From assembly GCA_900549625.1 (NCBI GenBank), contig URPE01000002.1:66885-130884 (forward strand): a stretch of DNA of 64,000 bases, in the 5' to 3' direction. The stretch is from an uncultured Mycoplasmatota bacterium. GTDB taxonomy: Bacteria; Bacillota_I; Bacilli_A; RF39; UBA660. The notes under the pieces were generated by a model, which saw only the letters and a list, made by a program, of their open reading frames with translations, did not search any database and was not told the origin of the DNA. The translations under genes and the position numbers were made by a program. Below, one piece after another: positions 34,177 through 44,581 of the stretch (position 1 is the first letter of the stretch; the number at the start of each line of letters is the position of its first letter).

Positions 34177-37152
34177 TTATTTTACCACACATTTAACTAT
34201 TATTTTTTCAAGACCATTAATATCTTTTACAGGTGATGACACATCTACTATTGTTAATTCAGTATTCCTTGCTAATAAAAATTCATTTTCCAAGTTATAG
34301 AAATCAGAAATTTGATTTATATAAGCACCTGGAGTACCCTTTTTAGCAATTATATCTAAAACTATTGGACAATCCATTCTTTTAGCAAAGGAAGTACTAT
34401 ATGCAGGAGAGGTACTTACATAACTTAAATCCTTAAAAGGTTTACCGATAAGAGTTTCCAAAGTAGTTGAAATTCTTGGCAAATCATTTTCAGCAATACC
34501 ATCAAACAAAGCGGCATAAACTGAGCTTTGAGCTGTAAAAGCAGATAAATTCACTCCCCTATATAATTCAGTTGCCTGCTCCAATCCGCCATATTTCATA
34601 ATAGCAGAATCAATATTTTTAACAAGTTTTTTTGCATCAAAACCATTTATATTACCATGAACATTTTTGGCCCTTATTTGACCATTTATAATGCTATACG
34701 CACTACTACTATAAATCCTTAAAGCAGAAATCTCGTCAGTTGTAAGCCGTGATAAAAATCTTCCCTGAATAGTATTATTCAAAAAATTCTGAAAAGAGGC
34801 TTTTGAAGCTCCAGATAATTTTCCAAGAACTTGTTGAACGGAGTATCCATGAACAAACATGTCATGAATAATTTTGCCTGCATCTCCATAATATGAAGAC
34901 ATTTGCCTTTTTGCTTCATCAAGCAATATACTAAATGAAATATAATTAGTTGGTTCACCAAAAGAATTTAAATCTGAAACATTTTCAGATAAGTTTTCTA
35001 TAGTTTGATTATTATTTAATTTCTGTAAATTCATAGTTTCAGTTATATCTAAAGAATCAAGTTGATTGTTACTAATATTATCATTTATATCAGATAAATT
35101 CATGGTTATCGTAACATCATTAGAAATATCTTGTTGTCTAGAAAATTTAGTATTAGCAATCATAGAAGGAGTATTTAATATACCAGCAGTAATACCTCCG
35201 TATAATGCACTTTGTATTACATTTCCTTTTAATTCATTTCCATCTATTTTCTCTCCAGTTATTAATGATTTTACTTCTTCTCCAAATATCTCTTGCCCGC
35301 CTTCTTCTAAGCCTTCTTTTGCCATTGAATGTATATAACTTTTGAAACTATCAACTGGTACATCATTAAAAAAACTTATTCCACCTAAAAATTTCTCGGT
35401 TATACTTTCTGTTGCTCCTGATATTACCCCATATGTTAAGGCTTGACTATTTGTATATCCTTCTGTTAACATTTCATGATAACTATTGCCTCCAGCTGAT
35501 ATTCCTAATAAGGCCGAACCTATTGCTCCTCCTCCTGCCATACTTAATGCTATCGATGGAGCCATATTTCCTATTCCTTGACTTATTGCATAATTATCTT
35601 TTAAATATGCTCCTGTATAATCTCCACTTGCTAAGGCTTGACTTAAATACATATTTTCGTATTCTTCTATTGTATTTGCTCTACTTGGACTTTCTCCTGT
35701 TATAAATGCTCCAGCTGCACTTATTGCATGTTCTATTCCACTTGCACTTGATTGTATTCCACTATCTATCCCTTTTCCTGTTACTTTTAAATGATTGGTA
35801 ATTGCTTCTTTTATATTTTCTTCCTTTGAAAGAGTATTTAAATATGCCTGTGCTTTCTCTTTACCTATTGCTTGATTTACTGTATTCTCTATTACTTTTA
35901 AATATTCATTAGCTTCATATACACCATATTTATCATTTAAATAATTATATATCTTACTATATGTTTCATCTGTCCTTGCTACATGTATTAAATTTAACAA
36001 TTGTTTTGTATGATCATCAACCGAATATGCTTCATTACTTAATTTTGATATTCTCTCTTCTAATCCCCTTGCATATTCTAATTCACTTACTTGTCCATAT
36101 CTTTTACAATATTCTTCATAACTTGTAAAATAATTGACTCCTTCGACATTTTCTATTGTTATTTTACTACTATCTACTTTATCTTTATTTTGATATTTAT
36201 CATAATCACTTAATACAGTTAAACATTCATATTTTGCTACATCTATATTTTGTTCTATTTGTTCTATGTTTGTTTCACAACTTGTTTTTAATTCCTTTAA
36301 TTCACTTATATATTTCTTGTAATCTTCTAATGTTCCAAACTTTTCTTTTATTACCTTTTGTGATTCTTTACTCAACATACTTATATCATCTATTGTTCTT
36401 AAATGATACTTTGCTCGACTAAATTCGTTTTCTATTGTTTCATATTCTTTTAACTCTTCATCTACTGCACTTATATATTGTTTCATTAATGTTTTTTGTG
36501 ATTCTAATGGATTTGTATATTCTTGATATGTTTCATTATACACTTTATCATCTATTACTAACTCTGGTGTTTCTACTTTGCTATCAATAAAACTTAATAA
36601 ACTTTTTAAAACATTTCCTATCTTTGATATCTTTGTTGCTTTACCTACCTCTTCATCACTTGTATTTATTATCTCATTATCACTTATTCTTCTATCTGTT
36701 TCTTTTATAAACTTACTTATATATTTTGACATTTCTTGTGTATTAGAACTTTGTTCGTTATATGTGTTTATCTCAAATAATTCTGTATCATTAACACTAG
36801 ATGAATCTATAGACATACTTATCTTACTTGCTACTATACTTGCATTGCTTTCTTTTACAATACCACCTTTTTCACTAACTTTGTTTTCTAAGCCTTCTAT
36901 ATCATTACAATATTCTTGCATATAAGAAACTATATTATTTATATTATTAGAAATATCATTATAATTACTTTTTATCTTCTTTAATAATCCATTAAAAGCT
37001 GATATATCATCATAATTGTCTGTTTGATAATTACTTATATCAAATACTTCCTTTTTATTAAGATAGTACTTACTATAATTTTCTAAAGTGTCAATAACTT
37101 TTCTTATATTATCCGTGTTTACTTCAGTTATCACCTTCATGAGAAAAACCAA
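34177..37152 (-). CDS. LXG-type polymorphic toxin with C-terminal C3/VIP2-like (R-S-E class) mono-ADP-ribosyltransferase domain
   Basis: C-terminal ELYRGV (Arg), YVSTSPAYSTS (STS) and ENEFLLARNTEL (E-x-E ARTT loop) motifs; N-terminal helical secretion domain shared with 37631..44467. Confidence 0.7.
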   Translation of the reverse strand: MVFLMKVITEVNTDNIRKVIDTLENYSKYYLNKKEVFDISNYQTDNYDDISAFNGLLKKIKSNYNDISNNINNIVSYMQEYCNDIEGLENKVSEKGGIVKESNASIVASKISMSIDSSSVNDTELFEINTYNEQSSNTQEMSKYISKFIKETDRRISDNEIINTSDEEVGKATKISKIGNVLKSLLSFIDSKVETPELVIDDKVYNETYQEYTNPLESQKTLMKQYISAVDEELKEYETIENEFSRAKYHLRTIDDISMLSKESQKVIKEKFGTLEDYKKYISELKELKTSCETNIEQIEQNIDVAKYECLTVLSDYDKYQNKDKVDSSKITIENVEGVNYFTSYEEYCKRYGQVSELEYARGLEERISKLSNEAYSVDDHTKQLLNLIHVARTDETYSKIYNYLNDKYGVYEANEYLKVIENTVNQAIGKEKAQAYLNTLSKEENIKEAITNHLKVTGKGIDSGIQSSASGIEHAISAAGAFITGESPSRANTIEEYENMYLSQALASGDYTGAYLKDNYAISQGIGNMAPSIALSMAGGGAIGSALLGISAGGNSYHEMLTEGYTNSQALTYGVISGATESITEKFLGGISFFNDVPVDSFKSYIHSMAKEGLEEGGQEIFGEEVKSLITGEKIDGNELKGNVIQSALYGGITAGILNTPSMIANTKFSRQQDISNDVTITMNLSDINDNISNNQLDSLDITETMNLQKLNNNQTIENLSENVSDLNSFGEPTNYISFSILLDEAKRQMSSYYGDAGKIIHDMFVHGYSVQQVLGKLSGASKASFQNFLNNTIQGRFLSRLTTDEISALRIYSSSAYSIINGQIRAKNVHGNINGFDAKKLVKNIDSAIMKYGGLEQATELYRGVNLSAFTAQSSVYAALFDGIAENDLPRISTTLETLIGKPFKDLSYVSTSPAYSTSFAKRMDCPIVLDIIAKKGTPGAYINQISDFYNLENEFLLARNTELTIVDVSSPVKDINGLEKIIVKCVVK

Positions 37153-37266
37153 CCTTTTAAACGTCTAATGTTTCTAAAGAGGCTACTGCTTGTTCATATT
37201 CTTTTTTTGCTTTCTTTATTTCTGTCGTTTGATATATATTCATTAATTTATTTTTAAACTCTTTTC
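35159..37266. repeat. 2108-bp direct repeat, copy A (identical to 42474..44581)
   Basis: position-by-position identity with offset 7315; identical spurious antisense ORFs in track. Confidence 0.9.
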
Positions 37267-44467: not shown

Positions 44468-44581
44468 CCTTTTAAACGTCTAATGTTTCTAAAGAGGCTA
44501 CTGCTTGTTCATATTCTTTTTTTGCTTTCTTTATTTCTGTCGTTTGATATATATTCATTAATTTATTTTTAAACTCTTTTC
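42474..44581. repeat. 2108-bp direct repeat, copy B (identical to 35159..37266)
   Basis: see copy A. Confidence 0.9.

Follow-up and report, generated by a model that had tools for sequence, protein, structure and literature searches.

Two adjacent toxin genes of an uncultured species of low-GC gut Bacilli begin with the same 2.1 kb of DNA, which raises the question of whether the identity reflects a very recent duplication, an error of assembly, or a process that keeps older copies alike. Throughout, the window refers to the whole 64-kb stretch of DNA that was analyzed. Direct comparison within the window established base for base the perfect direct repeat claimed in the original prediction, with identity at 2108 of 2108 positions (Table 1). 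Not a single base can be added to the match at either end, and beyond it identity at that offset drops straight to background (12 to 21 of 50 positions). The repeat is present in two copies within the window and is free of any N. Each copy contains 664 codons plus 2 nt of a toxin open reading frame (ORF), a 4-nt spacer, and the stop codon and last 35.7 codons of a DUF4176 gene. The locus therefore comprises two full-length tandem toxin genes, in slots 1 and 2, with one 2.1-kb module in common, and the repeat holds the entire conserved N-terminal module of the toxins (660 to 664 codons) together with the toxin translation start region. The identical 664-aa N termini and unrelated C termini that had been predicted were both observed, as there was no nucleotide or protein similarity beyond approximately amino acid 676. 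The repeat was also said to cover two-thirds of the ORF, which is correct for the 991-aa gene but not for the 2278-aa gene, where it makes up 29%. A further claim, that the repeat covers the promoter-proximal part, was not substantiated: nothing places a promoter within the repeat, and scanning for promoters in DNA this rich in AT gave no information (106 matches versus 112 expected).

Table 1. Features of the tandem toxin locus and its surroundings (window coordinates)
Feature	Coordinates	Strand	Description
WXG100-type small proteins downstream of essC	26602..27923	-	96 aa, 97 aa, and 218 aa with WXG100-like C terminus
Type VII secretion core adjoining toxins	28058..32920	-	84-aa small gene and EssC/FtsK-type ATPase
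ADP-ribosylglycohydrolase, candidate immunity protein for toxin 2	32971..33948	-	Pfam PF03747, E 2.7e-66; part of slot 2 cassette (32932-35116)
70-aa ORF between toxin 2 and glycohydrolase	33945..34157	-	ORF, called as gene on public scaffold; slot 2 cassette
Toxin 2	34177..37152	-	991 aa from TTG, 987 aa from ATG at 37140; shared N-module plus predicted ADP-ribosyltransferase tail; exact protein P0001 called on public scaffold
Predicted ADP-ribosyltransferase exotoxin domain of toxin 2	34192..34755	-	Pfam PF03496 on 326-aa tail
Repeat copy 1 (slot 2)	35159..37266	-	Last 36 DUF4176 codons plus stop, 4-nt spacer, codons 1-664 of 991-aa toxin; exact identity to 42474-44581, ORF map
Intact small DUF4176 gene	37157..37504	-	112 aa from ATG at 37495; Pfam PF13780, E 9.5e-23; 3' end within repeat copy 1
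Older homology outside repeat, slot 2	37490..37601	-	Hairpin 37568-37581 with T-run, ribosome-binding site, DUF4176 start
Toxin 1	37631..44467	-	2278 aa, 2274 aa from ATG at 44455; shared N-module, mid-module, and ~1300 unannotated residues; exact protein P0004 in public assemblies
Mid-module of toxin 1	41567..42473	-	97.7% nucleotide identity to slot 1 toxin of L010 (21 differences/907 nt); strains diverge beyond
Repeat copy 2 (slot 1)	42474..44581	-	Same 2108 nt heading 2278-aa gene; borders alike in L010, L058, L059
DUF4176 remnant	44472..44603	-	43-aa in-frame ORF: start codon, 8 codons, then last 35 codons
Older homology outside repeat, slot 1	44589..44697	-	Hairpin 44665-44678 with T-run after kinase-like gene, ribosome-binding site, remnant ORF start

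The small gene upstream of toxin 2 encodes a protein of 112 to 115 aa that matched the DUF4176 model PF13780 with 80.5 bits (cutoff, 25). [quoted passage not shown] The domain match, the small size class, and the position adjoining a type VII secretion system (T7SS) toxin gene identify the product as a predicted DUF4176/Ltc chaperone. The 3' end of this gene had been placed within the repeat, which was the case for copy 1 but not for copy 2, where only the 43-aa in-frame remnant is found. The remnant has an internal deletion of approximately 218 bp. In an alignment of the upstream flanks the 3' edge of this deletion coincided with the upstream border of the repeat, which places this border at the end of a deletion within the slot 1 DUF4176 gene. 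The junction was identical in the window and in L010, L058, and L059, which are metagenome assemblies of other strains of the same species. Older homology lies outside the repeat: the two stretches listed in Table 1 share 84 of 112 nt and align locally with a score of 79 compared with 30 ± 4 in shuffles, and the slot 1 stretch is orthologous to the spacer between the kinase-like and DUF4176 genes of the single-toxin strain L052. Both spacer hairpins are too poor in G-C pairs to have been reported by the terminator scan. The homologous DNA adjoining the repeat is only 69 to 75% identical between the slots.

The two genes had been labeled LXG toxins, and this label was not supported by searches with domain models or for the motif. 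The LXG model PF04740 gave no match on the full proteins, nor on N-terminal fragments at an E value of ≤1; a search of NCBIfam with the N-module found no family at ≤0.1; and a PDB profile search with nine family members found no LXG chain at ≤10. The first L-x-G in the N-module is at amino acid 544, whereas LXG proteins are expected to carry the motif in the N-terminal ~100 residues, and the first 100 columns of the family consensus contain no conserved glycine. AlphaFold2 predicted long helices at residues 2 to 28 and 46 to 90, but with a pLDDT of <50 for residues 1 to 219 with or without an alignment; the mean pLDDT of the N-module was 40 for the single sequence and 53 with 12 sequences, confidence being confined to residues ~320 to 470. 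A Foldseek comparison of this low-confidence model with the PDB returned nothing below an E value of 0.5. Homologue searches that used the N-module as a single sequence or within an alignment yielded three proteins only and missed known relatives. The family and the other strains were instead reached via a search against representative proteins and via a third query, P0005. The search against representatives defined a family of 870, and nearly all of the 150 matches listed end at query amino acids 656 to 660, the repeat border, in proteins of 255 to 5100 aa. Pairwise comparisons gave the same limit. The N-module is thus a member of an unannotated family, and the downstream border of the repeat is the point where homology stops across the whole protein family. 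JGI metagenome contigs contributed 31 distant relatives (25 to 34% identity). None of these 31 had an internal long repeat, so that the tandem arrangement was encountered only in the species of the window. A constant region of 660 aa that lies outside Pfam and NCBIfam and fails the LXG tests, in a family of 870 representative clusters, implies that annotation pipelines will miss such effectors.

Beyond the shared module, the 326-aa tail of toxin 2 matched Pfam PF03496 with an E value of 5.8e-26 (91.5 bits; cutoff, 23.4), and its translation contains LYRG, VSTSP, and ENE, which correspond to the R / S-T-S / E-x-E catalytic signature. The model match and the signature together argue that the tail is an ADP-ribosyltransferase (ART) domain. 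Fragment scans were needed for this assignment, because Pfam searches of the full-length toxins reported only a spurious DUF885 and missed the ART domain. The C-terminal tail of toxin 1 had no Pfam, NCBIfam, or PDB sequence match. The slot 1 and slot 2 mid-modules, compared in strain L058, were 69% identical. The 70-aa ORF that follows toxin 2 matched no family in Pfam or NCBIfam, and no immunity candidate lies directly 3' of the 2278-aa toxin gene, where 126 nt without an ORF are followed by the DUF4176 gene.

The toxin genes adjoin genes of T7SS type. The EssC/FtsK-type ATPase (28058-32653) matched Pfam FtsK_SpoIIIE with an E value of 5.5e-47. The 84-aa gene at the YukD position (32666-32920), which is conserved across strains, matched no Pfam or NCBIfam family and was assigned by position and size only. 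The WXG100-type assignments came from NCBIfam matches to TIGR03930 and NF035934, both below cutoff, and no Lap1/Lap2-type gene was recognized upstream of either toxin. Given this gene context, both toxins are predicted to be exported by the T7SS.

The weight that can be placed on perfect identity depends on how the contigs were made. All contigs with both copies come from metaSPAdes-type assemblies (NODE_ or scaffold_ names). SPIRE/MEGAHIT was rejected as the origin of the window's scaffold, as one MEGAHIT unitig cannot hold the same 2.1 kb twice, and SPAdes in metagenomic mode (mOTUs-db pipeline), whose "scaffolds" naming agrees with the record, was the probable source. metaSPAdes collapses small differences to a consensus, spells a repeat edge identically at each path crossing, and resolves long repeats by path-finding. 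For these reasons, identity and covariation in the interior of the repeat do not count as independent observations, and only sites that lie no more than roughly a k-mer or a read length from the repeat borders are phased. The "zero divergence" of the original prediction is partly a product of construction, since the window contig matches a metaSPAdes-style scaffold. More generally, a long repeat that looks "perfect" in a metaSPAdes contig is not a measurement of zero divergence.

In its strongest form, this concern would mean that only one copy of the module exists and that the assembler traversed a graph loop or fused sequences of two strains. The match of the window to a short-read metagenome scaffold, with path-finding that masks variants, is compatible with such an artefact, as is the breaking of contigs of other samples at the repeat; these contigs stop at or inside it, so the locus is indeed the assembly trouble spot that had been anticipated. 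We nevertheless consider an artefact very unlikely. At each end, the unique 5.2-kb interval runs into the repeat with the reading frames of the 2278-aa ORF and the DUF4176 gene left intact. The unusual DUF4176-remnant junction needs real reads, and four assemblies of separate samples have it in identical form. Copy-specific bases in L058 and L060 are tied to different flanks, which indicates two physical copies, and single-toxin strains assemble straight through, MEGAHIT assemblies included, and look different.

Comparison of the locus across strains, which had been put forward as a check, showed that the two-slot locus recurs and indicated that the duplication is old. The locus was found in L010, L043, L045/L059, L046, L058, and L060, and the flanks in other strains of the species were 93 to 99% identical to the window. 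The repeat was exactly 2108 bp long, with the borders seen in the window, in L010, L058, and L059, shared borders being judged only where both repeat ends were retrieved. Exact-protein look-ups with the DUF4176 protein, the kinase-like protein, and SpoVT found only contigs of the window's own strain. In a difference matrix of four strains, the copies within a genome differed by 0, 0, 1, and 0 nt and those from different genomes by 6 to 25 nt, so that the repeat copies group by genome and not by slot.

These observations bear on the proposal that the duplication is very recent and that the copies have had too little time to diverge without any conversion. The 0 differences in 2108 bp of the window are what such an event would leave. 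However, strains with repeats that are 6 to 25 nt apart have an identical junction and identical borders, and the flanks of the window and L010, the one pair measured, differ by 1.5 to 2.7%. Without conversion, the copies in each genome should differ at least as much as the strains do, and the homologous DNA directly outside the repeat has diverged to 69 to 75% identity between the slots. A very recent duplication is therefore highly improbable, and the data favor an old duplication that has probably been kept uniform by gene conversion; its age follows from the junction shared among several strains and from the divergence of the adjoining homologous DNA.

Alleles at the phased edges of the repeat support conversion between the slots. 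At position 8 of the repeat, the alleles of slots 1 and 2 are G/G in the window, A/A in L010, and G/A in L058, and at position 2067 they are C/C in the window, T/T in L010, and T/C in L060. L060 has A, A, and T at positions 1968, 2023, and 2067 in slot 1 and C, G, and C in slot 2. The MEGAHIT contig L048 starts at position 1827, 141 nt before position 1968. The sharing of alleles between slots at these sites, together with the clustering of copies by genome, agrees with the ongoing gene conversion envisaged in the original prediction. Purifying selection on the protein alone, without recombination between the copies, might be invoked instead, given the conservation of the module across a large family and its probable binding to the chaperone and export factors. 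Selection of this kind does not hold synonymous or noncoding sites, and of the 23 differences between the repeats of the window and L010, 10 are synonymous, 2 lie upstream of the toxin start, and 0 separate the copies within a genome. We consider this explanation very unlikely.

A more serious alternative is that the window does have two closely similar copies that fall short of perfect identity, interior single-base differences having been collapsed by the assembler and conversion being patchier than the contig implies. We regard this as possible, though considerably less probable than conversion that keeps the copies uniform. metaSPAdes masks small bulges, and differences between copies were seen only near the phasable borders. 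Two strains from Hadza "E" samples, L010 and L046, differ solely at position 1968, a between-copy site in L060. The MEGAHIT contig L047 crosses 1829 nt, most of the repeat, unbroken, which is a poor fit to two identical copies in that sample. Against this reading, the window copies are truly the same at the phased polymorphic sites 8 and 2067. Moreover, collapse hides only sparse differences, so the contrast with 69 to 75% identity outside the repeat stands.

While the module is uniform, the DNA beyond it is not. Relative to L010, slot 1 is a collinear block from 45985 to 41567, diverges from 41567, and regains collinearity at 37600, and slot 2 diverges from 35116 and regains collinearity at 32932; the breakpoints of the cassettes lie 907 nt and 43 nt past the repeat, respectively. 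Between flanks that are 97 to 99% identical, the slot 2 cassette of ART tail, 70-aa ORF, and glycohydrolase is replaced by another tail and a 234-aa gene, and the 1300-aa tail of slot 1 is replaced by a transglutaminase-like tail (a weak Pfam match, E value of 0.054, below cutoff) and a 93-aa gene. Four distinct C-terminal tails were found within the one species. Homologues that have the N-terminal part in common and differ in the C-terminal part, and tips that are replaced jointly with the downstream gene between strains, are the marks of polymorphic toxins. The idea that the repeat offers a substrate for switching of toxin C termini is upheld by the finding that both slots hold other C-terminal cassettes in other strains. 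The 7.3-kb deletion product that had also been predicted was not found among the strains retrieved. The single-toxin strains were rejected as such a product, as they have an intact DUF4176 gene and an N-module that is 5 to 17% diverged, and they represent a different haplotype.

Taken together, these data suggest that the region is most likely a two-slot polymorphic-toxin locus of a T7SS whose module is homogenized by conversion. RecA-type gene conversion between the copies, acting in both directions, probably keeps homogenizing the module, and its tracts would end where homology ends, leaving the borders sharp. The module and the conserved downstream DNA (the DUF4176 spacer and yukD-essC) probably serve as homology arms for the exchange of toxin/immunity cassettes between strains. 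Selection probably also favors uniformity: with one intact DUF4176 gene remaining, the two toxins would have to share a chaperone and export factors, and loss of the interval by recombination would take the only intact chaperone gene with it. A bolder proposal is that the identity is a maintained "one chaperone, two toxins" design, in which selection holds both N-modules to a match with the one remaining DUF4176 gene, the 43-aa remnant is kept to couple translation of the first toxin, and the 2.1-kb repeats are a dedicated high-frequency platform for cassette exchange, comparable to antigenic-variation loci, in a hitherto unannotated non-LXG T7SS toxin family. We consider this unlikely.

Repeated modules and recombination within T7SS loci have been described for LXG toxin systems (PMC12478183; PMC9900821). 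[quoted passage not shown] Unlike them, they show no LXG-model match, no LxG motif, and no Lap-type genes between the upstream gene and the toxin. Their conserved module is 660 aa rather than about 200 aa, and it is shared at about 100% by two full-length genes, where the LXG systems have one full gene and fragments.

Closer parallels to the repeat itself are found in other toxin systems. The Rhs elements of Escherichia coli ("rearrangement hot spots") occupy several loci and combine nearly identical multikilobase cores with unrelated C-terminal tips. They resemble the present locus in the long near-identical core, in the abrupt switch to unrelated tips and immunity genes, and in cores that are substrates for recombination, duplication, and deletion. 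They differ in that the protein family here is probably unrelated and is associated with a T7SS rather than a T6SS, and in that the two copies of the present locus sit side by side in a single operon-like array, at a distance of 7.3 kb. In the CdiA-CT/orphan cassettes and the MafB cassettes of Neisseria, recombination exchanges tips and immunity genes at a conserved motif marking the end of the constant part, and the corresponding motif here is ...ALYGGITAGILNTPSM. Their orphans are promoterless fragments with short homology, whereas here there are two complete genes with 2.1 kb of homology. In Tre1-Tri1 of the Serratia T6SS, an ADP-ribosyltransferase toxin is paired with an ADP-ribosylhydrolase immunity protein. 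Similarly, the predicted ADP-ribosyltransferase domain of toxin 2 is closely followed by an ADP-ribosylglycohydrolase gene, although the delivery system is another one and the 70-aa ORF separates the two genes.

The kind of system described here is already known, and the locus is a clear, unsurprising example of how bacterial toxin arsenals diversify. Within it, natural strains show both halves of polymorphic-toxin locus evolution, a uniform export module between paralogues and turnover of tips and immunity genes, in the setting of a type VII secretion system from an uncultured human-gut Bacilli lineage.

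The two repeat copies (see the table) match at 2108 of 2108 positions, which bears out the perfect direct repeat of the original prediction, and for an exact match of 2.1 kb chance is no concern. The match cannot be extended by one base, the flanks at the same offset are at background (12 to 21 matches per 50 nt), and a repeat search of the whole window returned no third copy. Each copy comprises 664 codons plus 2 nt of a toxin open reading frame (ORF), a 4-nt spacer, and the stop and last ~36 codons of a DUF4176 gene. Using the 660 aa common to both toxins as the query against 1.84 billion representative proteins, we obtained 870 hits (E ≤ 0.001); nearly all of the 150 family matches listed, in proteins of 255 to 5100 aa, stop at query residue 656-660. 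Therefore, the downstream end of the repeat is the end of the constant region of a polymorphic-toxin family, with the motif ...ALYGGITAGILNTPSM. The upstream flanks are homologous (37490-37601 versus 44589-44697; 84 of 112 nt shared; local alignment score, 79 versus 30 ± 4 for shuffles), and both carry a hairpin with a T-run, a ribosome-binding site, and a start codon; this homology is old. The offset between the two flanks is shifted by 218 nt and thus the DUF4176 gene of copy 2 is internally deleted, in frame, with a 43-aa ORF only and no intact DUF4176 gene upstream of that copy. The 3' edge of this deletion forms the repeat's upstream border.

Features of the toxin locus and its surroundings (window coordinates)
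Feature	Position	Strand	Description
HerA/DUF87-type ATPase	24142-26052		636 aa
Toxin-2 tail and following genes	32971-35157		ADP-ribosyltransferase tail, then 70-aa ORF, then ADP-ribosylglycohydrolase (PF03747; E, 2.7e-66)
Toxin 2	34177-37152	minus	ORF, 991 aa; 987 aa from the ATG used by public gene calls
Repeat copy 1 (slot 2)	35159-37266
Intact small DUF4176 gene	37157-37504		Pfam family match
Toxin 1	37631-44467	minus	ORF, 2278 aa; 2274 aa from the ATG
Mid-module	41567-42100		NGLYH[IF]T...; aa ~790-950 of the 2278-aa protein
Repeat copy 2 (slot 1)	42474-44581
DUF4176 remnant	44472-44603		43-aa ORF: start codon, eight codons, then in frame the last 35 DUF4176 codons
Protein-kinase-like gene	44674-45426		250 aa
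ORF adjoining kinase-like gene	45436-45894		152 aa; no family match
T-box leader	48490-48672	minus	122 bits; upstream of NUDIX and methionyl-tRNA synthetase genes
SRP RNA gene	58698-58778
Palindrome array	58823-59905		7 copies of TGTTTCACGTGAAACA, 6 exact and 1 with one mismatch

Beyond the repeat, the two toxin proteins have nothing in common, in line with the unrelated C termini that had been predicted. The tail of the 991-aa protein is a predicted ADP-ribosyltransferase exotoxin domain (PF03496; E, 5.8e-26), recognized only when the tail was scanned alone; although it scores E 6e-26 as a fragment, Pfam scans of the entire proteins, which are AT-rich and of low complexity, overlooked it. The pairing of this tail with an ADP-ribosylglycohydrolase gene resembles the immunity-by-reversal layout of Tre1/Tri1 (T6SS), here in a type VII locus and at the level of genes. 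Within 37505-41566, the ~1300 C-terminal residues of the 2278-aa protein had no match in Pfam, NCBIfam, or the PDB. No ORF lies between the stop of this toxin and DUF4176, so it is without a visible immunity candidate; the allele of other strains has a 93-aa gene at this place.

The ADP-ribosylglycohydrolase gene is followed by the YukD-position gene, whose 84-aa product has no family match, and a gene for a 1531-aa EssC/FtsK ATPase, beyond which WXG100-type small proteins are encoded; judged by gene content, this is a predicted type VIIb secretion locus. DUF4176 proteins have been shown to serve T7SSb toxins as toxin-specific chaperones (PMC12478183). The toxins had also been assigned to the LXG family. 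However, fragments gave no PF04740 match (E ≤ 1) and no NCBIfam family, a family-profile search found no LXG chain in the PDB, and no L-x-G motif occurs before residue 544 of the N-module (the conserved N-terminal part encoded in the repeat). The predicted structure of the N-module had pLDDT <50 over residues 1-219, and a fold search gave no match. By context, the toxins would work like LXG toxins, but none of the LXG tests that could be run places them in the family.

In all strains, the HerA/DUF87-type ATPase gene is conserved just past the WXG100-type genes, and the kinase-like gene directly adjoins the upstream end of the toxin array. The kinase-like protein (Pfam Pkinase; E, 2.7e-24) has an intact HCDLKPDN catalytic loop, with DWN replacing DFG; a role for this gene and the neighboring 152-aa ORF in the secretion system is possible. 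Elsewhere in the window, the palindrome TGTTTCACGTGAAACA, which is identical to the Bacillus-type parS consensus, occurs seven times where chance predicts none, each copy being followed by a DnaA-box-like TTATC[CA]ACA or TTATTCACA. The array occupies a 1.1-kb ORF-free stretch adjoining the SRP RNA gene, and a parS/DnaA-box array of such density is unusual.

Over 22,964 bp, the window and ENA ERZ28622153 'OBRE15-1_SAMN03283293_METAG-scaffold_14' have the same sequence. A scan of species-representative genomes identified L010, a Hadza metagenome-assembled genome ('uncultured Bacilli bacterium'), with flanks 98 to 99% identical and the same architecture, in the order kinase-like, remnant, toxin (1427 aa), 93-aa gene, DUF4176, toxin (1410 aa), 234-aa gene, YukD-position gene, and essC. 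Exact-protein look-up added further two-slot strains (L043, L045/L059, L046, L058, and L060) and single-toxin strains (L052 to L057) whose lineage is the same or very close; a word-indexed protein search missed 98 to 100% identical relatives present in its collection. L010, L058, and L059 likewise have a repeat of exactly 2108 bp, with borders and remnant junction unchanged. Over these 2108 nt, the two copies within a genome differ at 0 (window, L010, and L059) or 1 (L058) position, genomes differ from one another at 6 to 25, and copies cluster by genome rather than by slot. The 23 differences between the window and L010 repeats are 10 synonymous, 11 nonsynonymous, and 2 upstream of the toxin start; the DNA neighboring the repeat is 1.5 to 2.7% different. 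In the Hadza strains, both toxins carry a homologous mid-module directly after the repeat that is only 69% identical between slots. Therefore, the paralogues are old and only their 2.1-kb module is uniform, which speaks against the very recent duplication of the original prediction. Such uniformity within old paralogues is the signature of concerted evolution.

Contigs holding both copies have SPAdes-style names (NODE_..., ...-scaffold_N), and the sample naming of the record suggests the mOTUs-db pipeline, which uses SPAdes in metagenomic mode. By design, metaSPAdes replaces small variants with a consensus, and it threads its paths through a common edge to resolve a long repeat; the interior identity of the copies is therefore partly built in. 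Such masking can conceal sparse differences only, and the contrast with the 69 to 75% identity outside the repeat therefore holds. Near the borders, where phasing is possible, copy differences are sometimes present and assemblers do report them. At repeat position 8 of L058, slot 1 carries G and slot 2 carries A; in L060, positions 1968, 2023, and 2067 read A, A, and T in slot 1 and C, G, and C in slot 2; and the MEGAHIT contig L048 begins at position 1827, which precedes 1968 by 141 nt (its k), the distance expected if site 1968 tells the copies apart there. Therefore, two physical copies exist. At the edge sites, the window's copies agree (G/G at 8, C/C at 2067), as do those of L010 (A/A and T/T), and a mixed state is seen in L058 and L060. 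Thus, the same alleles occur in either slot in different strains, which calls for inter-copy transfer in both directions or for repeated mutation. A further MEGAHIT contig (L047, 1-1826; ENA ERZ27287304 k141_503266) is unbroken over positions 2108 to 280, 1829 nt of the repeat. It is incompatible with two identical copies in its sample and suggests that the partner copy is absent there or much more diverged.

Relative to L010, collinearity beyond the repeat extends for 907 nt in slot 1 (to 41567), with unrelated sequence from there until 37600, and for 43 nt in slot 2 (to 35116), with unrelated sequence until 32932. The replaced blocks consist of the toxin tip and the small gene behind it; in line with the anticipated switching of toxin C termini, both slots have different tips in other strains. 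The mid-module occurs in 3/4 toxin alleles; its weak match to Tox-ART-HYD1 (E, 0.03; confined to the first 21 positions of the profile) and the weak Transglut_core match of the Hadza slot-1 tail (E, 0.054) are below the cut-off and are leads only. In the Hadza strains, a 135-nt mid-module patch (L058 12915-13049 and 17776-17910) is 94.8% identical between slots, the rest being ~69%, and may be a second small conversion patch.

The single-toxin strains have the order kinase-like, intact DUF4176 (114 aa), one toxin, 93/94-aa gene, and YukD-position gene. Their modules are 95% (L052) and 83% (L053) identical to the repeat, with flanks 93 to 99% identical, and were assembled without breaks, MEGAHIT included. 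We rejected recombination between the repeats as the origin of these strains; a product of that kind would have retained the remnant junction. The toxin of the single-toxin strains combines slot-2-type and slot-1-type parts in a mosaic.

In sum, the toxin unit was duplicated long ago and contains a 2.1-kb segment that varies from genome to genome but is uniform within each; the fixed borders of this segment coincide with the ends of homology, and the toxin tips turn over. We propose that gene conversion, by homologous recombination between the copies, would homogenize the segment, with tracts ending where homology ends, and that the segment and the conserved downstream DNA would provide the arms for import of new tips. 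Selection should favor matched N-modules in both toxins and retention of the interval, because the sole intact DUF4176 gene sits in the deletable interval. We consider the conversion model as a whole probable; the shared-chaperone rationale is tentative and, in our judgment, rather unlikely.

The closest functional analogues include the cores of the Rhs elements ('rearrangement hot spots') in E. coli and the cassette systems of CdiA and MafB. T7SSb LXG modules are likewise among them, those of group B Streptococcus including repeated partial modules with DUF4176 (PMC9900821). The repeat locus is genuine and clean, and specialists would find little in it to surprise them. What is new is the setting in an uncultured gut Bacilli lineage, a constant region of 660 aa that is unannotated and not detectably LXG, and population evidence pointing to the concerted evolution of two full-length T7SS toxin genes.
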